Assembly (NCBI GenBank): GCA_011192195.1
Contig: DUEH01000003.1
Location: 3,734 to 67,733, forward strand
Length of the DNA stretch: 64,000 nt
Direction: 5' to 3'
From: Chloroflexota bacterium
Lineage (GTDB): Bacteria > Chloroflexota > Anaerolineae > 4572-78
This document shows positions 5,843-59,223 of this stretch, piece by piece. The notes under the pieces were generated by a model. That model did not search any database. It was not told the DNA's origin and saw nothing but the letters and a program-made list of their open reading frames with translations. The position numbers and the translations under genes are program-made. The stretch's first letter is position 1. Every line of letters starts with the position of its first letter.

Positions 5843-5911
5843 AATGGTGAATGGTAAATGATGAATGGTAAACGGTCATTCACCATTCACCATTTACAAT
5901 TTACCATTCAT
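5843..5911. repeat. Imperfect hairpin with heptamer-repeat arms, (AATGGTR)n class
   Basis: Arms are aatggtgaatggtaaatgatgaatggtaaac and cattcaccattcaccatttacaatttaccattcatt. It exactly fills the gap between the permease stop (5912) and the dehydrogenase RBS/start (5827). Confidence 0.85.
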
Positions 5912-16268: not shown

Positions 16269-16283
16269 AAGTTGTTTCTCCCT

Positions 16284-16462: not shown

Positions 16463-16936
16463 TTACACCCTGCGTACCGTCCCGGCGTCGCCGTCTACTA
16501 ACAGGATCATTCCCGTCTTGAATTGTTGAACGGGAACGCTGTCTACGCAGGGAATTTCGGAAATGATACAACCAACGGCGGTAATGGGTTCACATTCGGC
16601 GTTGATAATGGCTGCTGGCGCCGCGCCGCCCAGTTTCAGGCGGTACAGCGTGTACGATCCTACCGTTGACCCCTTGCCGCTGGGAAAGACCAGCGCTTTT
16701 CCGGCAATAGATTGCCCTTCCAGTTCGTGGTCTTTTTCTAGCACCACGCCGCTTTCCGGGTCTACCCCGCCAAAAAAAGAGATGCCCATCGATGTGACCA
16801 GCGCTTCGGCTTGCGCCTGTCCCCCGTAAATTTTGCGTCCCTGATAAACCTGAGCGCCGAGCGCTGACCGCCGAGCGCCAATCCCTGACGATACCGTCGT
16901 TTCTTTTACAATCATTTTGAATTTTTCACTTTGCAT
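16463..16936 (-). CDS. Aconitase X swivel-domain subunit (DUF126)
   Basis: 'GGQAQAEALVTSMGISFFGGVDPESGVV...GKALVFPSGKGSTVGS...GAAPAAII'. About 25 N-terminal residues are encoded by heptamer-like repeats (16852-16879, 16905-16945), so the start is uncertain. Confidence 0.75.
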   Translation of the reverse strand: MQSEKFKMIVKETTVSSGIGARRSALGAQVYQGRKIYGGQAQAEALVTSMGISFFGGVDPESGVVLEKDHELEGQSIAGKALVFPSGKGSTVGSYTLYRLKLGGAAPAAIINAECEPITAVGCIISEIPCVDSVPVQQFKTGMILLVDGDAGTVRRV

Positions 16937-16942
16937 TTTGCA

Positions 16943-18142
16943 TTACCTTGTCGCCTCTGCAACCACATCGTCAAAAGGTTTTAGCGCGGTTTTGAAGTTG
17001 TTTTTGGCAAAAGCGTAGTAACAAGCTTTTGCGCTGTCTGTTACCATTGTGTCAAAGCGGCCTTTGATGGGCGCAACCACGCAGCAAGTATCGGCGGCAA
17101 TTTTTGCGCCGCTGGCTTCAATGGTGGCCGTGTAGCCCATCATATCCGCAATTTGCTTCACCGGGCGGGCGGTGGTAATCCAAAATTCTTTGGTCACCTT
17201 CTTGCCCTCCAGCAGTTCGGCAATGCGGGCTACTTCCTTGATGCTTAAGTGCGGGCAGCCCAGACTTACAAAGTCGGCGGCTTCGGACGCTTCCATATTC
17301 ATCGAGGCGATAGCCGCGTTGATTTCTGCCTGAGTCACCACGATGGTCTCTGTTGGCGGCGAAAATTGCGCCGCTTCCGGCGTAATGCCCTCCATGTGGA
17401 ACAGGGCCACGCCGCCATAGGTGGCAATGCTGGCGCAAAAGGATTTTAGATTTTCCACCGATGCTTCCGGCACGCCGTGAATGTAGGGCGCAATTTTCTT
17501 GCCCCCCGCTTCCAGCTTTTGCCCGATGGCTTTGCCCAGCGCGCCAAAGACGTTGTTTTCCGGCAGCTTTCCCTGCACTTTAATGGTCACGGCGGGACGA
17601 CGATTTTCAGTCAGGTGAAAGCCGTAAGCGGGCGTAACGCCGGTCAGCGATGCGGCCAATGCGCTGGGGCCGCCCTCTCTATTAGTGCGCGCCCCAATCA
17701 CCGAATTGGCGTAGCAGACCGCGCTGCTTTCCGCCCAGGCAATATGCTCACCGTAGTGGGGCGTGTTGCCAATGAGGTAAGGCGTGCAGGTGGCGGTAGC
17801 AATAACCTTCATTTGGGCAAAGGCATCCAGTACGCGCTGCTGGTTTTTGGCAAATTCCGGGCTAATGCCCAACGCCTGCCAGTTTTCAATATCCATTCCC
17901 GCCGGATTTAGCGTGGTCAGCACGCGCGCTCTGCCGCCGCCTTCTGCCATTTGCTGCAAAAAATGCAGCCCGGCCTCGCCCAAATTGTCGTAGCTCACCC
18001 CGGCAATCTGCACCGACGTTGCCGGAACCATTCTCTCCGCGCCGTAGATGCGTCCCAGGGTTGTTAAAATTTCCATTGCTTTCTGCGTCGCCGGACCTTC
18101 CCGTCCGTTGAGCATATCCTGTTCTTTTTGATTTAGTTTCAT
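16943..18142 (-). CDS. Aconitase X catalytic subunit (DUF521)
   Basis: 399 aa. 'LNQKEQDMLNGREGPATQKAMEIL' and 'VSYDNLGEAGLHFL' are typical of the AcnX large subunit. It sits adjacent to the DUF126 partner. Confidence 0.8.
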   Translation of the reverse strand: MKLNQKEQDMLNGREGPATQKAMEILTTLGRIYGAERMVPATSVQIAGVSYDNLGEAGLHFLQQMAEGGGRARVLTTLNPAGMDIENWQALGISPEFAKNQQRVLDAFAQMKVIATATCTPYLIGNTPHYGEHIAWAESSAVCYANSVIGARTNREGGPSALAASLTGVTPAYGFHLTENRRPAVTIKVQGKLPENNVFGALGKAIGQKLEAGGKKIAPYIHGVPEASVENLKSFCASIATYGGVALFHMEGITPEAAQFSPPTETIVVTQAEINAAIASMNMEASEAADFVSLGCPHLSIKEVARIAELLEGKKVTKEFWITTARPVKQIADMMGYTATIEASGAKIAADTCCVVAPIKGRFDTMVTDSAKACYYAFAKNNFKTALKPFDDVVAEATR

Positions 18143-21684: not shown

Positions 21685-21715
21685 CTGTAAACCAATTATT
21701 CTAAAGGAGAACAAA

Positions 21716-26626: not shown

Positions 26627-26649
26627 TCTGGGGTGGTAAAAATAAAAAA

Positions 26650-31382: not shown

Positions 31383-32003
31383 TCACCGGAATTTACCGGA
31401 TACTTTCAAAAGTACAATGACCCGCCAGAGTTGGACACGCAATTCCTGCCAGGTTTACAGCAGCTTTTCGCTTTGCTCAGGCGTTGCTTGCCGGGGAGGG
31501 GCGTAGTGTTGCCGGACGAACACTTCTGCCAGTTGGTGGACGCCCTCAAAGGAGGACGGGTTGCGGCGGTGGAACGGGGTCTGGGCCAACTGCTCTTTCA
31601 GATAGACTGCGAAGGCGCCGGCAAACTCATGATGTGCCATTCCCATTGACCGGCGGCGTGGTCTGCGGTGGATGGACGCAGCGCGCTTTCATCAACCAGA
31701 TAAGTCTGTATCCCCAGCGAAATCAACACCTGGTGCGAGGTTTCAAGCGCGGTTCTGGTGACTTCGGTGAAAACGAGAATGACGGTGGGACAGCATCAGC
31801 GCCAAGCCGGTGAACAGCATTGTCCACACCCGCGAGGAAGCTGTGAACTGCAACGCAAACACCAACGCCGTGATCAAGGCGACGGGCCATCCCTTGAATT
31901 TGAAGCTTGAATTCATACTTGTATTTTACATCGGCGCTAGGGTCGTTCAATGGGAAAGACATTTTTAAGCACGAATAACACGAATTTTCACTAATTTTTA
32001 ATC

Positions 32004-32205
32004 TTTATATTCGTGTAAATTAGCGCTATTCGTAACTACTCAGGCTCAGGTGCGACGCACTTAATAAATTGTTTTTTAGTGCAAATAACTACCCAATATC
32101 GTCAAAATTTGCACTTGCAGGGCGCTTCGTGAAGTGCGTTGCACCTATTTTCTCTATGGCTGAGTAGTTACTTTAATTTTTATATTCGTGTAAATTAGCG
32201 CTATT
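32004..32205. repeat. Composite: 27-bp perfect direct repeats flanking a 148-bp palindromic insert
   Basis: tttatattcgtgtaaattagcgctatt occurs at 32004-32030 and 32179-32205. The inner inverted repeats are gtaactactcag (32032-32043) and ctgagtagttac (32160-32171). Confidence 0.9.
32048..32146. repeat. MITE-like element with 15-bp terminal inverted repeats AGGTGCRACGCACTT, copy 1
   Basis: aggtgcgacgcactt (32048-32062) and aagtgcgttgcacct (32132-32146). It is homologous, in inverted orientation, to 60594-60690. Confidence 0.85.
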
Positions 32206-32784
32206 TGTGGTTAGATTTTTATCCTTTACGCCAATCCCATTCAAGGACCCCAGTGCCCACGCTTTCAACCGTGGCCCAAATTGTCCCTCATACCCCGTCG
32301 GCAACTGCGCCAGATACGTTTTTCCCTCGCTTGGCGAGTACCATTTCTCTTTGCGGAAACACACGTTATCCGTCTCCACTTTTATGTCCTGCACTATCAC
32401 ATCCTTGTGCCCCTTGAATTCGGCATCCGCTGGCAGTTGCTCCCGCTCAACTTCCAAAATTTCTTCTCGGTCTATCTTTATATTCTCGTTCTTTCGCCGT
32501 TTTTTACGTCCTTGGTTGGGTCCTTTGCGCTCCTTTTCCGAGGAGTAGTCCTCTCCTTCTTTTCCTTCTCTCTCATTTTCGTCATTCGATGCCGCTTCAG
32601 ATTTATAACTGGGCTTTTTTGATTGCCCCTTGAGCCGGTTGTTTTCCTCTCTCAGCCGCTCATTTTCTCCCCGGAGACGTTCAAGCTCGGCTTGTTGCCG
32701 TTCCACCAAATTCAGCAAATAGATTATGGCCTGACGGCTTCCTTCGTCCTCTATTTGCTTCGGGTCAAATTTAGCCAAATTCAT
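32173..32784 (-). mobile_element. Transposase N-terminal fragment (coiled-coil + DNA-binding region; IS66-like or related family), truncated
   Basis: 'QAELERLRGENERLREENNRLKG' zipper, a basic region, then '...YLAQLPTGYEGQFGPRLKAWAL'. No DDE domain follows. The last codons are encoded by the 27-bp direct repeat. Confidence 0.5.
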
Positions 32785-32859
32785 TGCGACTACCTTCTGT
32801 TCGACGGCTTGATAGCTTACATTCTACTGGTATTGCACCATCTTAACGATTTTCTTCCC

Positions 32860-33636
32860 CTAATTGCTCCATCCTTCCTGGATACAACTTCCCCCCGATT
32901 TATTGAGGAGATAATAGCTATCGCTGTCTGGAAAGCCGGTGTACGCGGCGATGGTGGCTTCGCCCAGTTCATAAGAGGTGTTGATATTTTTCAGCGCGGA
33001 AAAATCGTACACGTTGGGGAAAGCGGCTTCTTTTTCCAGCAGGTGTTTATGCCATTTGCGGAGAAAGTAGTAGCGATAAAGGGGGCTGCGGTCAATTTCG
33101 ATAATGGTTTGGCGCGTGTTGACAGAAGGATTGACTGATACAACGTGTTGCAAGGTGACAATGGGGCTTTGGCTGTGTTGCCAGGCCAGCCGCAGGGCGA
33201 AATTCCCGCCCATCGAAAAGCCGACGATAAAGAAAGACTTGCCCGCTTCAAGGTTTGCAACCTGACGCGCCGACTGAAAAACTTCTCCCAGTCGGCAGCC
33301 GTGAAAAACGCCCTGATTGAGTCTTGCCGTCCCCCCGTGATCGCGCATATTCAGCCGAAAAACCGAGTATCCTTCTTGAAACAGAGCCTCACCGACGGCG
33401 AGCATATACGTGGATTCAGCCGATCCCAACCAGCCGTGCAGCAACAGAACCACGCCCTTGCTATTGACTTGTGAGGAGTAAAATCCTTGCAACTTCACGC
33501 TGCCATCAACCGCTAAGGAAAGCAGCGCTTCTTGCGCCGATGCCAGCATTTCAGCCTTAACCGGCGGCATGCGGGTAGAAATAACGGTTTGAAAGTGTGG
33601 ATTTCTGGCCAGCAGATGCGGGGCGAAAGTCAACAT
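32860..33636 (-). CDS. Alpha/beta hydrolase (YheT-like)
   Basis: 'VVLLLHGWLGSAES' and nucleophile elbow 'GFSMGGN'. Confidence 0.8.
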   Translation of the reverse strand: MLTFAPHLLARNPHFQTVISTRMPPVKAEMLASAQEALLSLAVDGSVKLQGFYSSQVNSKGVVLLLHGWLGSAESTYMLAVGEALFQEGYSVFRLNMRDHGGTARLNQGVFHGCRLGEVFQSARQVANLEAGKSFFIVGFSMGGNFALRLAWQHSQSPIVTLQHVVSVNPSVNTRQTIIEIDRSPLYRYYFLRKWHKHLLEKEAAFPNVYDFSALKNINTSYELGEATIAAYTGFPDSDSYYLLNKSGGSCIQEGWSN

Positions 33637-33685
33637 AGGGGGATTTTAACACAATGACGCTATTTGAAAAAAGCAGCCTGGGTTA

Positions 33686-33713
33686 TTGACGATTGCTTGA
33701 TATTCTGGATAAT
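33686..33713 (+). promoter_or_regulatory. Sigma-70-like promoter (TTGACG-16-GATAAT)
   Basis: -35 at 33686-33691 and -10 at 33708-33713, in the divergent spacer upstream of the gene at 33865. Confidence 0.45.
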
Positions 33714-33782
33714 GGGGAGACAATGACAGTACAGCCCAACAATTTCACTCCCCCCTTTTCACGGGAGTATTCATTAAACAGA

Positions 33783-33852
33783 TGAAAATTTAGCTATCAG
33801 CGGTCAGCTATTAGCGATAAAGCTGACCGCTGATTGCTGATAGCTATTTTTA
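33783..33852 (+). repeat. Clamped leader hairpin: TGAAAAT - (AGCTRWC)n hairpin - ATTTTTA, directly 5' of the SD
   Basis: tgaaaat (33783-33789). Arms are tagctatcagcggtcagct (33791-33809) and agctgaccgctgattgctgatagcta (33821-33846). Then attttta (33846-33852), agggaga and the ATG at 33865. Confidence 0.8.
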
Positions 33853-33864
33853 AGGGAGAATCCA

Positions 33865-34584
33865 ATGACCAACAATACCTTTGATGTTCTTTTGCTCATC
33901 GCGCGTCCGGCGGCGGGTAAAAGCGAAATTATTGACTACCTTAAACGCAGCGATCTGGAAGAACGCCGTCGCCGGTTCCACATTGGGGACTTTGAAGAAA
34001 TTGATGACTTTCCAATGCTGTGGACCTGGTTTGAAGAAGACTACATCCTCACCCAAATGGGGTATCCTCGCCTGCACACCGACGCAGAAGGCTATTTCAA
34101 ATGGCCTTATCTGTGGAACTTGCTCATCAGGCGCATTTGCCAGGAATACAGCAAAGGCCTGCGCGACAATCCCACCTGCCACCGGCAATACACCACCATC
34201 ATCGAATTTGCGCGCGGCAGCGAACACGGCGGCTTTACCGGCGCTTTTGAGCATCTTAGCCAGGATGTGTTGAGTCGCGCGGCTATTTTGTACCTCAACG
34301 TCTCTTATGAAGAATCATTGCGCAAAAATCGCCGCCGTTTCAACCCGGATAAACCGGACAGTATTTTGGAACACGGCCTGCCGGATAAAAAGCTGGAGCG
34401 TATGTACCGCGATAGCGATTGGGAGCAAGTCAGCGCCGCCAACCCGGAGTACATCACTATTCAAGGGCATCGCGTGCCTTACGTGGTATTTGAAAATGAA
34501 GATGATGTCACCACCGCGCGCGGCTCCGCTCTGGGAGAACGCCTGGAAGAGACCTTGCAGCGTTTGTGGAAGTTGTATTCATAA
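33865..34584 (+). CDS. P-loop NTPase/kinase-like protein of unknown function
   Basis: Walker-A-like 'ARPAAGKSE' near the N-terminus of a 239-aa ORF. Confidence 0.6.
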   Translation: MTNNTFDVLLLIARPAAGKSEIIDYLKRSDLEERRRRFHIGDFEEIDDFPMLWTWFEEDYILTQMGYPRLHTDAEGYFKWPYLWNLLIRRICQEYSKGLRDNPTCHRQYTTIIEFARGSEHGGFTGAFEHLSQDVLSRAAILYLNVSYEESLRKNRRRFNPDKPDSILEHGLPDKKLERMYRDSDWEQVSAANPEYITIQGHRVPYVVFENEDDVTTARGSALGERLEETLQRLWKLYS

Positions 34585-34645
34585 GGCTTGCCGAACATCC
34601 TTGAAACTGGCGCCAGCTTCGGCGGCGAGATTATATTCTGGCGAC

Positions 34646-34720
34646 TTGACCGCCGACGGCAGACGACAGACCGCCGTAAAATCGACCTTTCGGCGGTCAA
34701 CGGTCAGCAGTTAGCGGTCA
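34646..34720. repeat. Imperfect hairpin with (GACCGYY)n arms
   Basis: Arms are ttgaccgccgacggcagacgacagaccgccg and cggcggtcaacggtcagcagttagcggtca. Confidence 0.85.
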
Positions 34721-34739
34721 TTACGAAAGGATTCTTCCA

Positions 34740-35684
34740 ATGATCCCCCATTTCACCCACCTGTTCAGCACCTACAGCATTGTTGCCCGCGATTCGCAAA
34801 CAGGCCAACTTGGCGTGGCGGTTCAAACGCATCAAATGGGCGTGGGGCGCGTGGTACCCTGGCTGCTGCCGGGCGTGGGCGCTATTGCCACGCAAGCCTG
34901 GACAAATATCAGCTTTGGCCCGCTGGGACTGGCAATGTTGCGCGAAGGCGTTGCCGCGCCAAAAGTGGTTCAGGCGTTGGTCGCCTCTGATGCAGGGGCG
35001 CATAATCGCCAGTTTGCGGTAGTGGATGCCAAAGGCGCGGTTGGCGCGTGGACGGGCAAAAATACCATTGCCCAGGCCGGTCACCACATTGGCGATGGCT
35101 ACAGCGCGCAGGCCAATATGATGAGCAGCGCCACTGTTGTTGACGCAATGGCCCGCGCCTTTGAAAACGCAAGCGGCGATTTGGCCGCGCGAATGATGGC
35201 CGCCCTGCAAGCCGCCCAGCGCGAAGGCGGCGACATTAGGGGGATGCAGTCGGCGGCGCTGAAAGTGGTTTCCGGCAACCTGAACGATCCATCCTGGAGC
35301 AGCCTCTTTGACCTGCGCGTGGATGAGCACGCCGCCCCCCTGACCGAGTTGGCGCGCCTGCTCAGGCTTCGGCGGGCGGAAAATATGGACAATAAGGGAC
35401 TTGATTTGCTCAAGCAAGGGCAACTTGATCGGGCCTTGGAAGTGTGGGCCGAAGCCCGCGCCCTGGCGCCGGAACTGGAAGAGCTCCCCTTTTGGCAGGC
35501 CGTCGCCCTGAGCGATGAACCTGCCGACATTCAGACCGCGCGTGAAATTTTGCAGCCTGCGTTAAACAAAGACCCCCGCCGAGACCACTGGCTGGATTTA
35601 CTCAATCGCCTGCAAGATTGCGGCATTATCCAGCGCCCCGGCGCGGTAGAAGAACTCGTTGAGCGAATGATGAATGACGAATGA
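34740..35684 (+). CDS. DUF1028-family (Ntn-hydrolase-fold) protein with a helical C-terminal extension
   Basis: 'FSTYSIVARDSQTGQLGVAVQTHQMGVG' is the characteristic N-terminus. Confidence 0.75.
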   Translation: MIPHFTHLFSTYSIVARDSQTGQLGVAVQTHQMGVGRVVPWLLPGVGAIATQAWTNISFGPLGLAMLREGVAAPKVVQALVASDAGAHNRQFAVVDAKGAVGAWTGKNTIAQAGHHIGDGYSAQANMMSSATVVDAMARAFENASGDLAARMMAALQAAQREGGDIRGMQSAALKVVSGNLNDPSWSSLFDLRVDEHAAPLTELARLLRLRRAENMDNKGLDLLKQGQLDRALEVWAEARALAPELEELPFWQAVALSDEPADIQTAREILQPALNKDPRRDHWLDLLNRLQDCGIIQRPGAVEELVERMMNDE

Positions 35685-35720
35685 CGAATGACGAATGACG
35701 AATGACAAATGACAAATGAC
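35665..35720. repeat. Tandem heptamer array (GAATGAC)n, 8 units, unpaired
   Basis: gaatgat, gaatgac x5, aaatgac x2. It contains the stop codon of the upstream gene (35682-35684) and the ATG of the SNF2 gene (35709). Confidence 0.9.
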
Positions 35721-38003
35721 CAACTCGAATGGCTGCCTCTCTCTGTTCCGCCGCAGCCAAAAGAGACGCAAAGCGAATTTTTTTGCCCGCACTGCAACAA
35801 GGCGGCGCCGGTAAACGCGGATACCTGTCCCCACTGCGGGCGACCGCTCATCCTTGCGGCGGGTTTGACGGAAGAAGCGCTGCCAGAGATTGCGTTGCTG
35901 GAACGCCAGCTTGACATAGCGCCGCCTCCTGAAGACTGGTTTAGCGGACGCGGCCTTGATACCCCGGCGATGTATGATCTGCGCCTGCAAGCGGAACGCC
36001 TGTACGTCACCGGCGGTTTTGAGCGTCTTATTTGCCTGGACGACATCAACATTGATCACTACCAGTACCAACTGGAGGCGGCGCAGCGCGCGCTGCGCGA
36101 TATGGGCGGGCGCGCTCTGCTGGCCGACGAAGTGGGGCTGGGAAAAACCATCGAAGCGGGCATTGTGATGAAAGAATTGATCGAGCGCGGTTTGGCGCAG
36201 ACCGTCCTCATCATCGTTCCGGCATCGCTTACCTGGCAGTGGCAAGAAGAAATGGCGGCCAAATTTTATGAAGATTTCCTTGTTCTGGAAAAACTATCCC
36301 AACTTTCCGCCCCAAACTCCCTGCCGCCAAAAGCTTGTCGCTGGATAATTTCCTACAGCCGCGCCCGATCCTCTGCCTGGGCAGAGCGCTTGCTGGCCTT
36401 TGAATATGATCTGCTAATTGTAGACGAAGCGCATAAACTCAAAAATCATCGCAGTAAATCTTATCGCTTTGTGGACCAAATTCGTAAGCGATACGTTCTG
36501 ATGTTAAGCGCCACCCCCGTTCACAATAACCTGCTGGAACTGTATAACCTGATCACCATCCTGCGCCCCGGCCACTTGGGAACGCGCCGCGCCTTTGCGC
36601 GTGATTTTATTGCCACGCCCACCGCTTTGGTCAAGCGTCGCGCTTACCGGCGCACTATCTACAGCCGACCGTCTGTTCACGCTTATTTACGCAAAAACCG
36701 GCAGGCGCGGCAGGAATATCGACAAAAGGGCGACGAGGCATTTCGGATTGTGGCGCGTACGGAAAGCCTGGATGAATTTTTGGCTGTTTTTTTGCCCAAA
36801 GCCGATGCGCAACCTAAAGCAGCCATCGAAGAAATCCGCAGTCTGATGCCGGAGGGCTACGATGTGGTGGAATTTGAAGGGGTTGAGTGGCGAAGCTGGT
36901 ATCGTCGCCGGATAGACTTTGTGTGTCGCCTGAGATTGCGCCCAAAAGCAAAGCGTCCCGAACCCAGCCGCCCTGACCCCAGGCGTCGCCTTAGGCCCCA
37001 AAATCCGGCCCTTGTACGCGCCTTGCTGCGCGAAGTGATGATCCGCAACCGGCGCAGCAGCGTGGGCGTCCGTTTTCCGCCCCGCGAAGCCGCTATCTAT
37101 CATCTCACACTTTCGCCGCCTGAGCGCAAGTTGTACAACGATGTGACCGCTTACATTCGCGAAGAATTACGCAATGTCCAGCAGCTTCCGTCGGGTAAGC
37201 GGCCTGCGGGCGGCGTGTTGCAGCTAAGATTGATGACCTTGCAAAAGCAGCTTGCTTCAAGCCCGCAAGCCGCGGTTCAAGGGCTGGAAAAGTTGACTGC
37301 CGGACAGAACGATGATCGGCTGAACGATTATCTGGCTTTGGCGCGCAGCATTGAACAAGGCCGCAAAGTAAAAGCGGTGCAGACCATTTTAGAGCAATAC
37401 CCGCATAAAACCCTTATCTTCACCGATTATCTGGCCTCTATGCGCGCCCTGAATGCAACGCTAACCGCCTCCGGCTTTGAGACAACGCTGTTTCACGGCG
37501 GCTTGTCCGCTTATGAACGGATTGAGGCGGTGCGGGAATTTCGTAACTCAGCGCAGGTGATGATCAGTCTGCGCTCCGGCGGCGAAGGGCATAATCTGCA
37601 ATTTTGCCGCCAGATGATTAACTTTGATCTGCCCTGGAATCCAATGATCATCGAACAGCGCATCGGGCGCATCCATCGCTTGGGGCAAAAACGAAAAGTC
37701 AGAATTTTCAACCTGTCTGTCGCCAACACCATCGAAGCCTACATTCTGGAGCTGCTGGCGAATAAAATTCGGATGTTTGAGCTGGTCATTGGCGAACTCG
37801 ATCTGATTTTAGGCGAACTGGCGGGTCAACGCAGTTTTGAGAGCTATCTTCAAGAAGCCTGGGTGGGCAGCCAATCCGAAGCCGAGTTGCTGCAAAAAAT
37901 TGTCGAACTGGAAAAAATCATTACCGGAGCCAGAGCTACTTACACTCAAATACGCTCCACGTCAGATGAATTATCAGATATTTTGGGCGGTGCAGAATCC
38001 TGA
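35709..38003 (+). CDS. SNF2/RapA-like helicase with an N-terminal zinc ribbon and an Arg-rich insertion
   Basis: 'CPHCNKAAPVNADTCPHCG'. Motif I 'ADEVGLGKT', motif II 'DLLIVDEAHKLKN', motif III 'LSATPVHN'. Helicase-C 'LPWNPMIIEQRIGRIHRLGQ'. A basic segment of about 130 aa (nt ~36612-37004) lies between the lobes. Confidence 0.9.
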   Translation: MTNDQLEWLPLSVPPQPKETQSEFFCPHCNKAAPVNADTCPHCGRPLILAAGLTEEALPEIALLERQLDIAPPPEDWFSGRGLDTPAMYDLRLQAERLYVTGGFERLICLDDINIDHYQYQLEAAQRALRDMGGRALLADEVGLGKTIEAGIVMKELIERGLAQTVLIIVPASLTWQWQEEMAAKFYEDFLVLEKLSQLSAPNSLPPKACRWIISYSRARSSAWAERLLAFEYDLLIVDEAHKLKNHRSKSYRFVDQIRKRYVLMLSATPVHNNLLELYNLITILRPGHLGTRRAFARDFIATPTALVKRRAYRRTIYSRPSVHAYLRKNRQARQEYRQKGDEAFRIVARTESLDEFLAVFLPKADAQPKAAIEEIRSLMPEGYDVVEFEGVEWRSWYRRRIDFVCRLRLRPKAKRPEPSRPDPRRRLRPQNPALVRALLREVMIRNRRSSVGVRFPPREAAIYHLTLSPPERKLYNDVTAYIREELRNVQQLPSGKRPAGGVLQLRLMTLQKQLASSPQAAVQGLEKLTAGQNDDRLNDYLALARSIEQGRKVKAVQTILEQYPHKTLIFTDYLASMRALNATLTASGFETTLFHGGLSAYERIEAVREFRNSAQVMISLRSGGEGHNLQFCRQMINFDLPWNPMIIEQRIGRIHRLGQKRKVRIFNLSVANTIEAYILELLANKIRMFELVIGELDLILGELAGQRSFESYLQEAWVGSQSEAELLQKIVELEKIITGARATYTQIRSTSDELSDILGGAES

Positions 38004-38006
38004 ATT

Positions 38007-38088
38007 GATTTTGGATTTACGATTGGTTCTTATGCGTAGCCTTAATCGTAAATCCAAAATCGTAAATCCAAAATCGTAAATCGTAAAT
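38007..38088. repeat. Imperfect hairpin with (CGTAAAT)/(CGTAAATCCAAAAT)n arms
   Basis: Left arm is gattttggatttacgattgg (38007-38026). Right arm is ttaatcgtaaatccaaaatcgtaaatccaaaatcgtaaatcgtaaat (38042-38088). The last unit supplies the ATG at 38087. Confidence 0.85.
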
Positions 38089-39397
38089 GATTATGAAAAC
38101 CTTTGCCACATCTTTTTTTAGCCACTTTGGGGCGAAAGCGCTGCCCTCTGAAACAGATATTCTGGTCGTTTTACCGCCGGACCTGGAACAGGTTTTTGGC
38201 AAACCGCGTCTTTATCTGACCTTTGCCAATGAAGACCCGGCCCAGCCGCGCGAGCTATCGCCCAATGAAGACCTGTTGGTTTATGGCAGTCGTACCTTTG
38301 ACCGGATGCTTGCGTTGCTTGAGGGGCGCGGCGCGACAACGCATTTGCAGCTACCCATTCGCCAGCCCACCGAACTTGATTTGCGGCTCCCCTTTGCCAA
38401 CGCTAAAGCGACGCTGGTAGAAGACGATTACCAACAAAGCGTAGAACCTTTCTACGTGTTTCACTTCCGGGCAACGTACATCTGGGCGGAAAAGGAAGAG
38501 GTTTTCATCACCATCACGCTGGATGGCGCGGGCGCGCAACATCCCCACCGCAGCGAGTTGCTGGGCCGGGGCAAGGTATTTGGCGCGCCGGATGAAAGCG
38601 AAGCGCGAAAGATTGACGCGGCGCTTTTACGTCAGCAGTTTGAACGCGCTCAGAAAATTGCCCAGGCGCAGGTTGCTGAACGCGCCGATGCTCTGGAAGA
38701 GATCATCAAGACGCGCTTGCGGCAAATTCTGGCGCGTTTGAAGCGATTTTATGGGCGATTGATGGCAGAAATAACCAGCGACAACCCGGCCCGAAACGAG
38801 GCGGCGCGGGCTGATTTGGAAGCCGACTTACAACGCAAACAGGCCGATGAGTTGGAGCGGCATCGGTTGCGAATACAGCTTGCGCCGGTGGGCTACGCCG
38901 TGATGCTGGTTCCCTTTATCGAGCATCGTTTGAGCTTGAGCTGCGGCCAACAGACCAGCCGCCTGACCCTGCGCCGCGACTTGCACACCGGCTGGGTGGA
39001 AACTTTTTCCTGTCAGCCGGAAATTGAATCTATCACAGATCTGGCTTTTTCCTCATTCAAAGATCGTTTTCGGGCGCAGGGGCGTTTTGCCGAACTGTGC
39101 GCGGAAAATGCGCTGCTCTGCCGGGAAGACGCGCTGCACAGCGTTTTGGCCGTCGCCGGAACGAAGGTAGAAGCGCCCGACGCGCCGGAGCAGGTTTGCC
39201 GAGACGCGCAGCGTTACATCTGGCGGCGAGTTGAGGCTGCTCGATGGGTTATTTATCTGGGACAGCGCAGAGGAAGCAAGGCTTTGTCGCCTGTCTTGGG
39301 GCGTTTGCTGGTGATGCTGGATCAGGAGGGGAACGTGATCAAACGGCGGAAAGTGGGGGCGGTGAGCCGGTTGTTGGGGAGAGTTTTCAAGAGATAA
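38087..39397 (+). CDS. Hypothetical protein, YqhG-like partner of the SNF2 helicase (tentative)
   Basis: 436-aa ORF 83 nt downstream of the helicase. N-terminal 'FFSHFGAKALPSETDILVVLPPDLEQVFGKPRLYLTF' and a central coiled-coil recall the Bacillus YqhG family. This is from memory and not verified. Confidence 0.55.
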   Translation: MIMKTFATSFFSHFGAKALPSETDILVVLPPDLEQVFGKPRLYLTFANEDPAQPRELSPNEDLLVYGSRTFDRMLALLEGRGATTHLQLPIRQPTELDLRLPFANAKATLVEDDYQQSVEPFYVFHFRATYIWAEKEEVFITITLDGAGAQHPHRSELLGRGKVFGAPDESEARKIDAALLRQQFERAQKIAQAQVAERADALEEIIKTRLRQILARLKRFYGRLMAEITSDNPARNEAARADLEADLQRKQADELERHRLRIQLAPVGYAVMLVPFIEHRLSLSCGQQTSRLTLRRDLHTGWVETFSCQPEIESITDLAFSSFKDRFRAQGRFAELCAENALLCREDALHSVLAVAGTKVEAPDAPEQVCRDAQRYIWRRVEAARWVIYLGQRRGSKALSPVLGRLLVMLDQEGNVIKRRKVGAVSRLLGRVFKR

Positions 39398-39404
39398 AAT
39401 CAGG

Positions 39405-39653
39405 CTAGAAAGCCTGCGCTACACTATTGAGACGGGTGATTTCCTCATCGCTCAAAGAAATTTCAACGCTTTTGATTGTTTCCTGTAATTGTTCAACCGT
39501 TCTTGCGCCAATGATAGCCGATGTGATGACCGGGTTCGCCAGCATCCAGGCCAGGGAGATTTGGGCGGGCGCGGCCTGGTGTTCAAGGGCGATTTCTTCC
39601 AAAGTTTCTATCACCGTAAACCCGGCGTCGTTGCTGTATTTTGACATCCTGTC
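39405..39653 (-). pseudogene. Aldo/keto reductase C-terminal fragment
   Basis: '...FTVIETLEEIALEHQAAPAQISLAWMLANPVITSAIIGARTVEQLQETIKSVEISLSDEEITRLN' is the last ~80 aa of an AKR. The upstream ~240 aa are absent, and the fragment begins at the repeat element's TIR. Confidence 0.6.
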
Positions 39654-39779
39654 GTAACCGTTCACCCCCCTCCAACCTCCCCCGAAATCAAGGGGAGGCT
39701 TTTAAACTTCCCCCCGTCAACGGGGGGAGAGCCTGCCCCGCTTTACCGGGCATTGAGGGGGGTAGGGGTGAACGGTTAC
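39654..39779. repeat. C/G-rich double-hairpin element with terminal inverted repeats GTAACCGTTCAC, copy 2
   Basis: gtaaccgttcacccc...ggggaggcttttaaacttccccccgtcaacgggggg...ggggtgaacggttac. It carries a 24-nt insertion relative to copy 1. Confidence 0.9.
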
Positions 39780-40030
39780 TCTGCGTCGCTGACCATGCGA
39801 GCGCTGTGTTCAATGACGCGGGCCACGGCAGAACGGTCAAAGTGGCGCAGGTCTTCTTTGTGGGCCAGCGCGCCAATCAACCGGGCGTAGAGCAGGGCGC
39901 TGTCGCCGTTGCGCGGCATATCTTCAGCAAAATCAGCCGTCACCTTGAATAACTCTTGAAAATCGGGGTCTTGCCGGCTCAAGAGGTAGTACAGGTATCT
40001 GTCGCCAATCAGGATGATTTTTTCTTCCGG
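39776..40030 (-). pseudogene. Internal fragment of a Lon-related AAA+ protease-like gene
   Basis: The frame is open from directly after the rhaB stop: 'EEKIILIGDRYLYYLLSRQDPDFQELFKVTADFAEDMP...FDRSAVARVIEHSARMVSDAE'. It has no start codon. Its TAA stop is supplied by the element's TIR. Confidence 0.5.
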
Positions 40031-41527
40031 CTAAGAATTCTCCGTTAAGGCCAGAAAGCCTTGGTACGCTTCATCCCAGGCGGCGGTATCTTGCGGCAGG
40101 TATTCTTGTACCGGGAAAGAGCGCTTGATAATGGCGCGCCCCTCTGCCAGCGAAGAAATTTCACCCACGGCCAGCATTTGCAGCAAAATATTCCCCAGCG
40201 CCGTCGCTTCGATGGGGCCGGTTACAACGCGCTTGCCGGTGGCATTGGCAGCAAATTGATTGAGCAGCTTGTTCCGCGCGCCGCCGCCCACAATGTGGAT
40301 GACTTCAATGGCCGAACCGGTCATCCCCTCCAGCTTTTCCACGCTCCAGCGATATTTCAAGGCCAGACTTTCCAGCGCCGCGCGGACGATGCTTCCTGTG
40401 CTTGGGGGGATGGTCTGTTCTGTACGGGTGCAGTAGGCGCTGATTCTGGCGGGCATATTACCCGGTGCAAGAAAGTCGTTATCTTCCGGGTTGACCAAAC
40501 AAGCCAGGGGGGGCGCATCGGCGGCCAGTTGGGTCAGTTTGTCGTAGGAATAGGCGTGACCTTCTTTTTTCCAGATGCGTTTACATTCCTGAACCAGCCA
40601 CAATCCCATAATATTTTTCAATAAGCGAATGGTGTTTTGTACGCCGCCTTCATTGGTAAAATTATAAGCCAACGATTGCTCATTGATAATGGGCGCGGGT
40701 GTTTCTACCCCCATCAGCGACCACGTACCCGAGCTGAGGTAGGCAAAGCGCCCCGCATCCTCTGCCGATGCCGGCACGGCGGCAACCGCGCTGGCGGTAT
40801 CGTGCGCGCCGGGGGCAATGACCGGGACGCGCTCATTCAACCCCAACTCTTCAACAATGGCGGGCAGCACCGTCCCCAGTTTTGCGCCCGGGCGGATAAG
40901 TGATGGGAAGATATCGGTGGGCAGGCCCAACTTTTTCAGCAGCGGCGCAGCCCAGATATTGTTTTGCATATCAAACATCTGGCTGGTGCTGGCGATGGTG
41001 TATTCGTTGGCTTTTTGGCCGGTGAACCAGTAGTTGAAGAGGTCGGGCATAAAAAGGAGCGTATTGGCAATTTGCAGCGCGGGGTCGTTTTGCTGCGCCA
41101 TTGCAAATAGCTGAAAAAGGGTATTGAGCTGCATAAACTGGATGCCCGTTTGGGCGAATATCTCTTCACGGGAGACAAGTTCAAAGACTTTTTCAAGCAT
41201 CCCGTTAGTGCGGCTGTCTCGGTAATGGTAAGGGTTGCCGATGAGGTTTCCCGCGCTGTCCAGCAAGCCGAAATCTACGCCCCAGGTATCAATACCCAGG
41301 GCCGCAAGCTGAATGCCGCGACCTTTGACTGCTTTTGCCAGACCGTTTTTCATTTCCTGAAACAGACGCAGCGTGTCCCAGTGCAGGCTGCCGCTCACCC
41401 GTACCGGGCCGTTGGGGAAGCGGCTGATCTCTTCCAGCGATAATTTCTCGCCGTCAAAACGCCCCACCAGCGCCCGACCGCTTTCCGCGCCTAAGTCCAG
41501 AGCCAGGAAGTTTTTTGTTTTAGCCAT
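40031..41527 (-). CDS. rhaB: Rhamnulokinase
   Basis: Strong collinear resemblance to RhaB: 'LALDLGAESGR', 'IDTWGVDFGLLD', 'YRDSRTNG', 'GIQFMQLNTLFQL', 'YLSSGTWSLMG', 'IHIVGGGARNKLLNQ', 'GPIEATALGN'. Start chosen at 'MAKTKNF' with RBS agaggag. Confidence 0.9.
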   Translation of the reverse strand: MAKTKNFLALDLGAESGRALVGRFDGEKLSLEEISRFPNGPVRVSGSLHWDTLRLFQEMKNGLAKAVKGRGIQLAALGIDTWGVDFGLLDSAGNLIGNPYHYRDSRTNGMLEKVFELVSREEIFAQTGIQFMQLNTLFQLFAMAQQNDPALQIANTLLFMPDLFNYWFTGQKANEYTIASTSQMFDMQNNIWAAPLLKKLGLPTDIFPSLIRPGAKLGTVLPAIVEELGLNERVPVIAPGAHDTASAVAAVPASAEDAGRFAYLSSGTWSLMGVETPAPIINEQSLAYNFTNEGGVQNTIRLLKNIMGLWLVQECKRIWKKEGHAYSYDKLTQLAADAPPLACLVNPEDNDFLAPGNMPARISAYCTRTEQTIPPSTGSIVRAALESLALKYRWSVEKLEGMTGSAIEVIHIVGGGARNKLLNQFAANATGKRVVTGPIEATALGNILLQMLAVGEISSLAEGRAIIKRSFPVQEYLPQDTAAWDEAYQGFLALTENS

Positions 41528-41539
41528 AGCAGTCTCCTC

Positions 41540-51707: not shown

Positions 51708-51753
51708 GAGGGCACTTCATCTGCATTGATTCTCAATAGGCTGCTCCTTTTTT

Positions 51754-51816
51754 AATTATCAATTATCAATTGTTAATTGTTAATTGTCAATTGTTAACTG
51801 ATAATTGTTCATTGTT
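51754..51816. repeat. Tandem heptamer array (AATTRTY)n, 9 units
   Basis: aattatc x2, aattgtt x2, aattgtc, aattgtt, aactgat, aattgtt, cattgtt. It encodes the last ~9 codons ('NNEQLSVNN') and the stop of the permease gene. Confidence 0.9.
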
Positions 51817-52821
51817 CTTGCTGCTTGCTTCGGCTAACCGGCGGCGATCGAGATAGGCGCGTACAGTTTGGGTCATATTTGGCACCAGCACCGACAGGAT
51901 AAGCAACATGCCGATAACCCCGGTTTGCACGTGGCCGGTAATATTTGCCAGCGACATACCGTTACGCAAGTTCAACACAATCATAATTGATAACAACACC
52001 CCGTAGATAGAGCCGGAACCGCCAAAGATACTGACGCCGCCCAGCAATACCATGGTGATGATGTCCAGTTCAAAGCCCAGGGCCAAATCGCCGCGAACAG
52101 CGCCCAGCCGGGCGGCAAACAGTAAACCGGCCAACGCAGCCACAGTACCGGAGGCTATGAACAAAATTGTTTTTACCCGATTTACTTTTACGCCGGAGTA
52201 TTCGGCCACTTCCCGGCTGTTGCCAATGACATACACGTACCGGCCAAAACCGGAGTATTCCAACAGCAAAATGGCCGCAATTACAAACAAAAAGAAAAGA
52301 AGCAAAGCCAGGGGAAACGGACCGACAAGCGGCTGCTGGCCCAAGGTGTCGAACCAGACGGGGAAATCGCCAATAGACTTGTCTTCCAGCAACACGCGGG
52401 CAAAACCTCTGAAGCCAATTAACATAGCCAGCGTTACCACCAGCGAGGGCAGGCCAACTTTGGCAATCCAAAAGGCGTTAAACGCGCCGCCAAGCACGCC
52501 AATTAGAAGCCCGGCCAACAAAGCGACCGGGATGGGCGCGCCCTGGCTGTAAAGCCAGGCCAGCGTACAAGCCGATAATCCCATCATCGAGGACACAGAC
52601 AAATCTATTTCTGCGTTGATAATGATAAAAGCCATAATCAGGGCTACAATTATTTTCTCGATGGATAGAATGAACAGGTTCATTTGATTACCAATGCTAA
52701 GGTAGTTGGGCGCAAGGGATGTGTTGCCGATGATAATCAGTATCAACACGAGCAGAAGGAACCCTTCCCAACTTTTTAGCTTATCCCATACTACTGACAG
52801 GAAGTTTTTATCATGCGACAT
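51787..52821 (-). CDS. Rhamnose-type ABC transporter permease (RhaQ-like)
   Basis: Multi-TM ORF of the ribose/rhamnose permease family. Start at 'MSHDKNF' with RBS aggagg, overlapping the upstream stop by 11 nt. Confidence 0.85.
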
Positions 52822-53878
52822 GTCCAGGTTCCTCCTGAGTTTGAGTTTCTTCGACATCTTGTTGGGTCATTTGTAGCTCACTCCGCGCCCACAAGTCTCG
52901 CAGGCGGTTCATAATTACAAAGTCAGCGGCTACGGCCAGCAAAATCATTAAGCCCAGCAGGGCCTCTCGCCAGAATTGGCTGATTTCCGCCCACCTAATC
53001 AGGCTGTTATCAATAACGTCAATCAATATGGCTCCCAGAAGCGTACCAATAATTGTACCGGCACCGCCGTTGATATTGGCTCCGCCCACAACCGCCGCCG
53101 CCACCGATTTTAGCTCTATCCCCAGGCCGGCCACCACGGTAATATTGCCAAATCGAGCCAGAAACATAAAACCGGCCAATCCGCTCAAAGCGCCACACAA
53201 CACAAAGGCAAAAAAGACAATCCGCTGCGAGGGAAAACCGGCCACTTTAGCGGCATCGGGGTTTGAACCAATGGCATACAGGCGGCGGCCATAGGGCAGA
53301 TAGCTAAGCATTAGTTGAAAAATAATAACCACCGCTACCATAATTCCTACCAGCAACCTGAAATCGAGTTTGTCTATGCTAAAGATATTGGCCCGAGGTA
53401 AGTCTATAATCCAGGCCGGCAGGCTGGACGTAATTACAGTTTGGGCGTCGGAGTACTCTACCAACATGGTGCGGAACAGAGCCAGCGTACCTAGCGTAAC
53501 AATAATGGCCGGCACCCGCCCATAAGCCACCAATACGCCGTTAAACGCGCCCATTGCCGCCCCAACGCCGATAGCCATTAGAACGACCGCAAGAGGAGCT
53601 ATCTCATTGTTATCGGCCAGTTGCTGGCCCACAAAATAGGCGGTAAAGCCTACAATAGAGCCAACAGACAGATCGATGTTTCGCGTTAACACCACCAAAG
53701 TTTGTCCAACGGCAACTACTGCGATAATAGCCACACTGGTTGAAATCCGATTAAAAAAACGGGGGCTGAGATAGTTTTCTATTTGAGTGGCAAAAAAGAT
53801 AATGACCATAATGATGAGTACAACAAGGACAAGTTCTCTAATTTGCTCCGGTCTAAAGCGGCGCATCAACGCGTTCAT
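52811..53878 (-). CDS. Rhamnose-type ABC transporter permease (RhaP-like)
   Basis: 355-aa multi-TM ORF. The start overlaps the ATPase stop by 4 nt. Confidence 0.85.
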
Positions 53879-59107: not shown

Positions 59108-59223
59108 CGAATGGGCGAATGGGCGAATGGGCGAATGGGCGAATGGGCGAATAAAAATCGTTGCCTACGCTTTGCGACCCATTCGCCATTCGCCATTCGC
59201 CATTCGCCCATTCGCCCATTCGC
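59108..59223. repeat. 116-nt hairpin with (CGAATGGG)n / (CCCATTCG)n octamer/heptamer arms
   Basis: Left arm is cgaatggg x5.6 (59108-59152). Right arm is cccattcg/ccattcg x6 (59178-59223). It fills the E2-stop to cupin-RBS spacer and is the same class as 7028-7103. Confidence 0.9.

Follow-up and report, generated by a model that had tools for sequence, protein, structure and literature searches.

Seven- and eight-nucleotide repeat arrays at gene boundaries of a Chloroflexota bacterium: probable slippage repeats that reach into protein termini

Introduction

[quoted passage not shown] In the stretch of DNA analysed here, 64 kb from an uncultured Chloroflexota bacterium (the window), a (GAATGAC)-type heptamer array at 35665..35720 (+ strand) spans the boundary between a DUF1028 gene and a gene for a SNF2-family helicase. 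It has eight units: one GAATGAT, five copies of GAATGAC and two of AAATGAC. An initial annotation of this DNA described comparable arrays at other gene boundaries, and proposed that they act as frame-independent translational stops and restarts, and that gain or loss of units makes protein termini evolvable. Here, we ask whether the arrays are such devices, or whether they are better explained as simple-sequence repeats that are tolerated between genes. The nearest relatives of the window are Chloroflexota / Anaerolineae / Caldilineaceae MAGs.

Results

Short-period arrays are abundant in the window. TRF reported 36 rows of period 7 or 8, compared with 2.1 in shuffled sequence (20 dinucleotide-preserving shuffles), and 18 rows compared with none at a score of at least 40. 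Twenty-four of the 36 have period 7 and 12 have 8-nt units. Arrays cover 13.5% of intergenic bases but only 0.7% of ORF bases, and their overlap with the longest ORFs is limited to the first ~85 nt or the last ~36 nt. Ten overlap a stop codon or begin no more than 9 nt from one. At 15343, 21586 and 41548, the arrays are free of stops and longest-ORF calls read across them. The arrays are not assembly artefacts, since the same arrays are found in four independent assemblies (L001, L083, L140 and L141); contig L001 terminates within the (GAATGAC) array. Nor are they CRISPRs, given units of 7–8 nt and the absence of spacers. Across the whole window, an Rfam scan at the gathering score gave no match, and a scan for tRNAs and tmRNA found none.

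A stop codon within a 7- or 8-nt unit comes up in each of the three frames by the third unit. This point of the initial annotation follows from arithmetic, and no stop-bearing array of at least three copies in the window departs from it. The further expectation, that arrays are enriched for stop codons, was not borne out. Among strand-instances of array units in the window, 19 of 70 bear a stop (23.2±3.1 expected), and pooling with relatives gives 45 of 106 (44.4±4.0 expected). Eighteen of the 35 arrays lack a stop on both strands. Approximately 11 arrays abut the 3ʹ ends of genes, and only ~5 of these carry all-frame stops on the sense strand. Elsewhere in the window, ATG-bearing arrays are neither placed before start codons nor oriented toward them.

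The array between the DUF1028 and SNF2 genes is delimited by TRF at 35664-35720 (period 7, 8.1 copies, 94% matches, score 93). [quoted passage not shown] TGA 35684 and ATG 35709 are 24 nt apart, and hence the stop and start neither overlap nor abut in the window. As RNA, the array has no predicted structure (MFE of 0 kcal/mol), and it has no inverted partner. No Shine-Dalgarno sequence was seen before SNF2 in the window or its relatives. A scan of 32000-40500 for promoters and terminators found no excess, with nothing at the junction; terminator-like sites numbered 14 in this region, compared with 12.2±3.7 expected, and an intrinsic terminator is absent at the junction.

The number of units at this junction varies within the species. 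With flanks that are ~99% identical, we found 5 units in L140, 8 in the window and 9 in L083, the last from a source assembly that has internal deletions. The initial annotation anticipated termini that depend on array length. Instead, SNF2 starts with MTNDQ in all three alleles, and the DUF1028 tail is RM(T/M)NDE throughout, with a single Met/Thr difference. In L140, only 3 nt lie between the DUF1028 stop and the SNF2 start. A more distant relative, L085 (81% identity), has just AAATGAC CAATGAC at the junction, and its two genes overlap by 11 nt. A metagenome scan with the pattern TGACCAACTCGAATGGCT for further junction alleles returned 48 loci, every one in unrelated genes.

Do the termini of the two proteins come from the array? 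The SNF2-family gene (35709..38003, + strand; Pfam SNF2/Helicase_C, with an N-terminal zinc ribbon) encodes a protein that starts with MTNDQLEWL. Orthologs with 51–60% identity start with M-(T/D/S)-x-(D/E)-x-L-(E/H)-W-L, although there is no array upstream of them and an in-frame stop lies just ahead, and the array-free orthologs L008, L011 and L004 begin with ATGACC. Because the array-less orthologs keep the conserved N-terminus, “ATGAC” would have belonged to SNF2 before the array existed. Judged by this comparison, the conserved start at ATG 35709 is ancestral and was not supplied by the array. The situation is different for the DUF1028 protein (Ntn-hydrolase superfamily; 34740..35684, + strand; Pfam E 3.9e-68), which ends with RMMNDE. 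Its final ~5 codons (M-M-N-D-E) and TGA are array sequence, and comparison of the C-terminus with 60 homologs places a Met where there is a conserved Leu in ELIxAL. The tails of the window protein and its close relatives are RMMNDE, RMTNDE, QLAISK, QLTNDQ and QLTISNDQ, and distant homologs end with ELIxAL(G/E). By the same kind of comparison, the DUF1028 tail is array-derived.

ATGA is a classic overlapping stop/start motif, and it is kept in each GAATGAC unit. In the window, overlapping ATGA motifs form a chain (35681..35712, + strand) that connects the stop of DUF1028 with the ATG of SNF2 through two 5-codon mini-ORFs, MTNDE and MTNDK. The chain reaches the SNF2 ATG in frame in the window and also, through TAATG, in L082 (read by eye), and it misses the SNF2 frame in L083 and likewise in L140 (read by eye). 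We therefore rejected the relay as a conserved feature: the independent 5-unit allele of L140 shows that parity is not kept. As the stop and start of L140 are 3 nt apart, coupling would be possible there without a relay.

A second array (AATTGTT/AATTATC, 51752..51816, - strand; period 7, 9.3 copies) lies at the end of a gene for an ABC sugar permease of the rhamnose type (Pfam BPD_transp_2; 51787..52857, - strand). We confirmed that the array encodes the last nine codons of the permease (NNEQLSVNN) and its TGA on the minus strand. It continues for ~5 units after the stop, and these form a palindromic hairpin (-15.1 kcal/mol, z -5.6). Here too the predicted dependence of the tail on array length was contradicted, since tail length is constant within one residue across the genus, in six relatives (86–89% identity). 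The tail units are conserved in relatives, and the extra copies in the window fall 3ʹ of the stop. The clade of permeases with the heptamer tail is 5–15 aa longer than relatives at 74–81% identity.

Downstream of SNF2, a hairpin and an AATCGTA/AATCCAA array (38007..38088, + strand) precede a gene for a conserved 436-aa protein (38093..39397, + strand). The 3ʹ arm of the hairpin (38007-38061; -26.4 kcal/mol, z -4.5) runs on as the array up to ATG 38087. The initial annotation correctly noted that CGTAAAT at 38082-38088 leads into this ATG, and took it as the start codon. However, the conserved Met is at 38093, 6 nt beyond the array, and ATG 38087 would add two residues. Thus, the idea that true starts lie within arrays stands for the SNF2 ATG, albeit with an ancestral codon, and fails for the 436-aa protein. 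There are two CGTAAAT units in the window and three in L082. We rejected compensatory change in the hairpin, as the differences in L082, read by eye, make mismatches rather than covariation. The label “YqhG-like” also has to be withdrawn: no NCBIfam model matched the 436-aa protein, and neither did any Pfam model at E<=10 save a spurious match to Mpp10.

At the AcnX locus, the initial annotation placed a heptamer run between the stop of the large subunit and candidate starts of the small subunit, and we recovered it as a weaker array (TGCAAAA/TTCAAAA, 16913..16944, - strand; 4.6 copies). The large-subunit gene (16943..18142, - strand) ends at the edge of the run with TAA 16943-16945, and the candidate starts of the small subunit (swivel domain; 16463..16936, - strand; assigned by Pfam and homolog comparison) are ATG 16936 and ATG 16915. 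A second run placed in the N-terminal region of the small subunit, at 16852-16879 (GGCGCTC/GGCGGTC), was likewise confirmed as a weaker array (4.0 copies). Homologs of the small subunit are mostly 129–132 aa long and start with M-K-(F/W/Y)-Q-G-R-K; at that point the window has Q-V-Y-Q-G-R-K. This second run lies inside an apparent in-frame insertion of 63 nt (9 x 7 nt, 21 codons) at 16847..16909 (- strand), after codon 2 of the ancestral small-subunit frame, with boundaries aligned by eye to L091. The insertion would translate as VKETTVSSGIGARRSALGAQV. At the same position, L090 (88% identity) has TTCAAAG TTCAAAA TGTAAAA; in L091 (80%), the two subunits overlap by ATGA and the heptamer run is absent. 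The small subunit thus appears to have gained a 63-nt in-frame insertion that gives it an array-derived N-terminus, and the C-terminus of the large subunit was altered alongside.

Most arrays in the window are members of inverted pairs, and many form long hairpins. The commoner, paired form of the arrays is exemplified at 59108..59223 (- strand), where (CGAATGGG)x5.6 faces (CCATTCG)x6.1 in a hairpin of -83.9 kcal/mol (z -10.2) that begins 5 nt past a stop codon. Another pair, AATGGTG/CATTCAC at 5843..5910 (- strand), fills an 84-nt spacer (-33.9 kcal/mol, z -7.4). Simple slippage does not explain the inverted pairing of most arrays. Relatives differ in whether they have entire hairpins: a GACCGCC-family hairpin that lies in the spacer before DUF1028 (34647..34720, + strand) and an AGCTATC/AGCGGTC hairpin (33786..33851, + strand) are both missing from L082, in which the spacer is 19 nt rather than the 155 nt of the window. 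Near-identical strains differ by three substitutions in a 2-kb block, and two of the three lie inside the 33786..33851 hairpin.

The units share a vocabulary. In the 64 kb sampled, the 35 arrays comprise 27 canonical units with shared cores; AATG occurs in 11 of the 35 units (2.0±1.4 expected) and CGAAT in seven (0.5 expected). Five loci have CGAATGG(G), and four have GACCGCC-type hairpins. Furthermore, hairpins at 8120, 12048 and 34647 have the common termini GACCGCCGAC...GTCGGCGGTC, and the AGCTATC/AGCGGTC family is found at 33786, 41755 and 44303. Only one base separates GAATGAC, the unit in the species of the window, from the recurrent CGAATGG family, and this unit could possibly have been recruited from elsewhere.

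Discussion

We consider it likely that the arrays are heptanucleotide and octanucleotide simple-sequence repeats that are driven by slippage and tolerated between genes. They would be similar to the short tandemly repeated repetitive sequences (STRRs) of filamentous cyanobacteria and to the long simple sequence repeats (LSSRs) found in many bacteria. Slippage during replication would create arrays and alter their length in this Anaerolineae-type lineage, and arrays would survive only where they do little harm, that is, in short intergenic gaps. Arrays may lie flush against stop and start codons simply because they are kept only in short gaps between genes. For three of the four junctions, we propose that the gene boundary itself was the source of the array. 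In the case of DUF1028 and SNF2, the unit NAATGAC would be a copy of an ancestral overlapping stop/start (AAATGACCAATGACC, which remains in L085), and each unit would carry both ATG and TGA because it was copied from a stop/start whose ATGAC core is the Met-Thr start of SNF2. As 7 and 3 are coprime, the upstream frame always meets a stop by the third unit, and the downstream ORF always starts at whichever in-frame ATG comes last. Units in the middle can be added or removed with no effect on either protein, and the array would therefore be free to vary. Occasional encroachment would alter a few terminal residues or add an in-frame extension, as a by-product rather than a selected function. Three elements of this account are inferred: that slippage is the generator, that the arrays are neutral, and that junctions gave rise to arrays. 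Read from the alignments, arrays have changed termini in the course of evolution: in the window, arrays separate two gene pairs whose counterparts in relatives (L085 and L091) overlap, and the ends of the DUF1028, AcnX and permease proteins have been reshaped. In this limited sense the proposal of evolvable termini stands, but the tails are not tied to unit number.

How do the arrays compare with known repeats? STRRs are 7-bp tandem repeats that form intergenic hairpins, with function unknown, although they have been proposed to affect the stability of transcripts or to couple translation; like the arrays described here, the cyanobacterial STRRs have 7-bp units at many intergenic loci, with frequent hairpin potential between co-transcribed genes (PMC2670836). 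In contrast, the host here is an uncultured Chloroflexota bacterium, not a heterocystous cyanobacterium, so we refer to the repeats as STRR-like rather than STRR, and 8-nt units are also common. STRR1-3 have the units CCCCAGT, TTGGTCA and CAACAGT, from which the units found here differ. A literature search found no description of such repeats in Chloroflexi. All-frame stops in heptamer repeats have already been described for the TAACTGA repeats of marine Beggiatoaceae and some cyanobacteria, whose forward stops in three frames mean that only ORF ends are overlapped; 13 overlap an upstream stop, and three further ORFs have repeats inside them or over either end (MacGregor 2015, PMC4679880). Those repeats resemble ours in being intergenic heptamer arrays that adjoin start codons, but they have one dominant unit and a strong orientation toward downstream starts, whereas here there are ~27 units, no such bias, and inverted pairs. 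TAACTGA itself is in no array of the window, the closest unit being TAGCTGA at 41755-41775. LSSRs in prokaryotes (5–11 nt units; Mrazek et al. 2007), as outlined in a later paper, are most commonly heptanucleotides, are attributed to polymerase slippage, and are excluded from coding sequence when the unit is not a multiple of 3 (PMC4679880). That outline presents a statistical class rather than a mechanism, and does not describe arrays derived from stop/start overlaps or paired hairpins.

Could the arrays instead have been selected as frame-independent stop/restart modules that hand ribosomes on and are kept for evolvable termini? All-frame stops in the longer stop-bearing arrays, an ATGA in every (GAATGAC) unit where a Shine-Dalgarno is lacking, and tails that vary among relatives are all consistent with this. 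Nonetheless, we regard it as very unlikely, given that stops are not enriched, that half of the arrays are stop-free on both strands, that fewer than half of those at 3ʹ ends carry sense-strand all-frame stops, that protein ends are independent of unit number, and that the SNF2 start is older than its array while that of the 436-aa protein lies outside its own. A published analysis is also contrary by its title, which reports no evidence in eubacteria, unlike eukaryotes, of selection for fail-safe 3ʹ additional stop codons (PMC6764699). None of our results supports selected stop/restart devices. Stop/start coupling of a more conventional kind would fit the overlaps in relatives (ATGA in L091, 11 nt in L085); however, the 24-nt gap in the window would have to be crossed through two mini-ORFs, by a relay that is not conserved among alleles. 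Such a relay is the basis of another proposal, in which the junction would act as a contingency (phase-variation) locus where unit parity switches SNF2 expression: with an even distance, ribosomes would arrive in frame at the SNF2 ATG, and with an odd distance they would not. Three length alleles in one species, and a relay that lands on ATG 35709 in the window and apparently on the equivalent codon of L082, fit this proposal. SNF2 helicases of this general type are found in defence systems, although scores of the window protein against the DrmD, DpdE and ZorD models are far below cut-offs. We consider the proposal very improbable. Neutrality predicts polymorphism equally well, parity matches in two of four cases, which is the level of chance, and L140 would need no relay. 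Classical phase-variable SSRs have units of 1–5 nt, sometimes 7, and lie inside an ORF or promoter, where they shift frame or spacing. The junction resembles them in within-species variation of unit number, but neither reading frame shifts here, although translational coupling might be affected.

The shared vocabulary of the units argues against purely local slippage, which does not predict it, and may point to mobility, to gene conversion or to some process that is sequence-specific. The arrays and hairpins might thus be a mobile or propagated family (REP/MITE-like), or sites for an RNA- or DNA-binding factor, with overlap of gene ends being incidental. The excess of AATG and CGAAT, the termini shared by hairpin families across loci, and the presence or absence of whole hairpins between relatives all point in this direction, and MacGregor suggested regulator binding for the TAACTGA repeats (PMC4679880). 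We nevertheless think this explanation unlikely, if less so than the two above, since the junction arrays share their core with flanking gene sequence in relatives, unit number changes in steps of 7 within the species, and the DUF1028/SNF2 array has neither an inverted partner nor predicted structure. A combined scheme would have the arrays arise by an active, sequence-biased process, as judged from the AATG/CGAATG and GACCGCC cores that units have in common and from the pairing of arms in inverted orientation, with hairpins wedging between genes and splitting ancestral overlapping pairs, and (GAATGAC)n serving as an ATGA relay phase switch. We give this scheme little credence as a whole; if true, unit parity would be a translational-coupling phase switch that alters neither protein.

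On the preferred reading of slippage-driven, tolerated repeats, no new translational mechanism is revealed. For annotation, the arrays matter in practice: start and stop calls beside them are unreliable, as where ATG 38087 competes with the conserved Met 38093, and short-read assemblies may break at arrays, as that of L001 does. The arrays extend STRR-like repeats to Chloroflexota, a third lineage beside cyanobacteria and Beggiatoaceae; relatives of this Chloroflexota lineage are often filamentous. They also offer clean examples in which slippage would have made arrays out of stop/start overlaps, uncoupling two gene pairs, newly writing terminal residues and, in one case, adding a 63-nt insertion.

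Results

The repeat-period spectrum of the window is dominated by periods 7 and 8. Period-7/8 TRF rows number 36, versus 2.1 in dinucleotide-preserving shuffles (n = 20), and 18 versus 0 at scores of at least 40. Array sequence accounts for 13.5% of intergenic and 0.7% of ORF bases, and ten arrays overlap a stop codon or start no more than 9 nt from one. Most have a reverse-complement partner array at a distance of a few to ~60 nt (5843-5910, 8120-8175, 12048-12129, 20857-20948, 21578-21654, 26648-26776, 28583-28644, 33786-33851, 34647-34720, 38007-38061, 42423-42492 and 59108-59223), and hairpin arms may differ in period, as where CGAATGGG (8 nt) lies opposite CCATTCG (7 nt). Besides the array at the DUF1028/SNF2 junction, 13 array regions were folded; 12 gave z-scores between -4.3 and -10.2, and none of their shuffles was as stable. 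The strongest hairpin is at 59100-59230 (-83.9 kcal/mol) and the weakest region is 20855-20950 (z = -3.0). The DUF1028/SNF2 array is the exception, with an MFE of 0 and no inverted partner. Rfam, tRNA and tmRNA scans gave no matches in the window.

Uncultured Chloroflexota MAGs, carrying the labels Anaerolineae, Caldilineaceae or Aggregatilineaceae, are the closest genomes. At scores ≥36 their array density ranges between 0 and 5.6 per 10 kb, compared with 3.1 in the window; the figure for the close relative L082 is 2.9. In near-identical strains, substitutions cluster inside and beside heptamer hairpins (33832, 33834, 34659-34764), and of the three differences that one 2.1-kb block contains, two lie in the 33786-33851 hairpin arm, both recurring in the loci L083, L140 and L141. 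The period-15/30 and period-18 tandem repeats at 51387-51496 (in a 1065-aa binding protein) and 11113-11582 (in ORF 10777-11922) differ from the intergenic 7/8-nt arrays in that their units are multiples of 3, which makes them in-frame coding repeats.

Units at different loci share a vocabulary. AATG occurs in 11 of 35 array units (2.0 ± 1.4 expected) and CGAAT in 7 of 35 (0.5 expected), and unit sequences are interdependent. CGAATGG(G) is found at five unlinked loci (7026-7103, 15343-15373, 41548-41576, 59108-59152 and 59179-59223), CGAATGA at two more (21626 and 35664), and GACCGCC-type units are repeated in hairpins at 8120, 12048, 34647 and 44441. A second family of repeats consists of a palindromic element whose ends are TTCCCAAAC...GTTTGGGAA (copies at 48330-48378 and 51645-51708, and a weaker one at 6996-7020) and looks REP- or MITE-like. 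A long form, TTCCCAAACTGATCCTTCGG...CAGGACAAGGTTTGGGAAC, brackets the 1065-aa Peripla_BP_4 gene on both sides, and a short form lies in L082 spacers (13300-13326 and 14869-14895).

The array at 35665-35720 (+ strand; TRF score 93, 94% matches, 8.1 copies) has eight units: GAATGAT, five of GAATGAC and two of AAATGAC. As the initial annotation stated, it contains both the stop of the DUF1028 gene (34740-35684, +; Pfam E = 3.9e-68; C-terminus ...RMMNDE), with TGA 35682-35684 in unit 3, and the start of the SNF2/Helicase_C gene (35709-38003, +; N-terminal zinc ribbon), with ATG 35709 in unit 7. Array-free SNF2 orthologs (51-60% identity) all start M-(T/D/S)-x-(D/E)-x-L-(E/H)-W-L directly downstream of an in-frame stop, and several open with ATGACC. 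On this evidence ATG 35709 is the ancestral SNF2 start, and the ATGAC core of the array would have been gene sequence first.

DUF1028 homologs are usually 310-313 aa long and end ...GAAEELIxAL(G/E), and tails differ among relatives that carry units. L085 (81% identity; AATTAAC, AAATGAC, CAATGAC) ends LTNDQ, with DUF1028 and SNF2 overlapping by 11 nt; L082 (89%; AATTAGC ×2, AAATGAC, CAATGAC, TAATGAC, AAGTGAC) ends LAISK and starts SNF2 with MTSDQLEWL; L084 (87%; AATTAAC, AATTAGC, AATGACC, AATGAGC) ends LTISNDQ and has no downstream SNF2. Same-species alleles with five units (L140; tail RMTNDE), eight (the window; RMMNDE) and nine (L083; RMTNDE) all start SNF2 with MTNDQ, which points to an array of hypervariable length between essentially constant protein ends. 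The DUF1028 tail is set by unit sequence and phase, not by the number of units. The L083 contig (JGI 3300005264), near-identical to 31932-40600, lacks several internal 16-270-nt segments, including parts of DUF1028 and SNF2; it reflects either poor assembly or a deletion-rich population, and its 9-unit allele therefore needs caution.

(GAATGAC)n is also a chain of ATGA overlaps, and in the window the mini-ORFs MTNDE and MTNDK lead from the DUF1028 stop precisely onto ATG 35709. Read by eye, this relay also reaches the SNF2 start in L082, through a TAATG overlap; it misses in the 9-unit allele and, again by eye, in the 5-unit allele. Success in two of four cases is the chance expectation.

Downstream of SNF2, a CGTAAAT unit (38082-38088) leads into ATG 38087 of a 436-aa gene, as initially described. 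The intervening hairpin and array are kept in L082, with one more CGTAAAT unit. In four other loci (L004, L008, L012 and L015) the sole nearby Met aligns to 38093 (MKTFA...), two codons past the array ATG. The 436-aa gene (38087-39397) lies directly 3ʹ of the zinc-ribbon helicase gene in many Chloroflexota (L002-L012, L015, L082), and the two are a conserved pair. Pfam and NCBIfam gave no family for the 436-aa protein, previously labelled "YqhG-like", and the top NCBIfam matches of the helicase (DrmD, RapA, DpdE) score far below cut-offs.

The array at 51752-51816 (- strand) encodes the end of a BPD_transp_2 permease, NNEQLSVNN plus TGA; the initial annotation had read its (AATTRTY)9 repeat as the final nine codons and stop of a permease. 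In six relatives (86-89% identity, 343-344 aa) the tail is of near-equal length, encoded by 3-4 NCAATTA-type units, and the position of the stop is unchanged; in the window, ~5 additional units sit past the stop and form a palindromic hairpin. Permeases at 74-81% identity end ~5-15 residues sooner. The spacer separating the permease from the next gene holds a conserved block, AAAGGAGCAGCCTATTGA(A/G)nATCAA..GCAGATGAAG (51715-51750, -), shared by four genomes (the window, L086 at ~3340-3375, L088 and L089). Given its SD-like AAGGAG with a TTG behind it, the block may represent either a short leader ORF or a regulatory RNA ahead of the binding-protein gene.

The heptamer runs reported at the AcnX large/small subunit boundary are present but weaker (16913-16944 and 16852-16879, -). 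Small-subunit homologs start with M-K-(F/W/Y)-Q-G-R-K and for the most part are 129-132 aa long. In L091 (80% identity) the two subunit genes overlap, the TGA of the large and the ATG of the small sharing ATGA; at this place L090 (88%) and the window carry T(T/G)CAAA(A/G) heptamers. In our alignment to L091, the window retains TTCAAAATGATT, which corresponds to CTCAAATGATT in L091, followed by 63 in-frame nt (9 × 7, 21 codons) before TAT-CAG-GGA-CGC, a frame-preserving insertion after codon 2 (16847-16909, -). On this reading, the ancestral ATG would persist as Met8, the start annotated by NCBI (P0241, 150 aa, 100% identical), and translation of the heptamer run would yield an N-terminal insertion. 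An array of heptamers within a coding sequence can be tolerated only if it gains units three at a time.

Stop codons are not enriched in units of the window (19 of 70 strand-instances versus 23.2 ± 3.1 for letter-permuted units) or in 53 arrays pooled from the window and Chloroflexota relatives (45 of 106 versus 44.4 ± 4.0). In the window, 18 of 35 arrays are stop-free on both strands, and all-frame stops on the sense strand occur in ~5 of the ~11 arrays adjoining a gene's 3ʹ end. ATG is enriched in window units (12 versus 6.4, P = 0.009), which is due to the AATG family, and ATG-bearing arms lie mostly beside stops or on the antisense strand; units of relatives' arrays have no ATG enrichment.

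Discussion

The best-supported account is that these arrays are STRR-like heptamer/octamer simple-sequence repeats whose length varies through slippage. Arrays would persist only in narrow gaps separating genes, and at several junctions would have grown out of the sequence at the boundary. As 7 and 3 share no common factor, an upstream ORF always terminates by the third unit and a downstream ORF begins at the last in-frame ATG, so that gain or loss of units mid-array goes unseen by both proteins; this would be why the array is tolerated and polymorphic. Slippage has been invoked for heptanucleotides elsewhere, where they are the most frequent class of long simple sequence repeats (Mrazek et al. 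2007, as summarised in PMC4679880), and cyanobacterial STRR sequences are likewise 7-bp repeats forming intergenic hairpins, e.g. between hupS and hupL (PMC2670836). A less likely alternative is that the arrays are of mobile or actively propagated origin. The slippage account leaves unexplained both the unit vocabulary common to separate loci and the pairing of inverted arrays, and we therefore retain this alternative as a rival.

The initial annotation is correct that arrays contain stop and start codons, both being present at the DUF1028/SNF2 junction, and its interpretation is partly supported. Its core idea has a published precedent, since forward copies of TAACTGA heptamer repeats place a stop in each of the three frames and so must sit at ORF ends, with 13 cases overlapping upstream stops (MacGregor 2015, PMC4679880); our literature search found no account of such repeats in Chloroflexi. 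We find no support for a selected function as frame-independent stop/restart modules, and three outcomes that the initial annotation had named as refuting it are seen: stop codons are not enriched in array units, protein ends do not follow array length, and the conserved Met of the 436-aa protein (38093) lies outside its array. The proposal that protein termini evolve by unit gain or loss stands insofar as arrays have remodelled termini over evolutionary time, but the ends are independent of unit number in the 5-, 8- and 9-unit alleles. Under slippage, remodelling of termini would be a by-product.

With the exception of one 2.2-copy match, arrays overlap longest ORFs only within ~85 nt of the ORF start or ~36 nt of its end. 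Hence, the "internal" arrays at 15343, 21586/21626 and 41548 are most likely intergenic arrays absorbed by over-long ORF calls. The longest-ORF starts of 15321-16286, 21584-22747 and 40031-41584 pass through these stop-free arrays. Since the true starts are probably further downstream, automatic annotation at stop-free arrays will tend to make N-termini too long.
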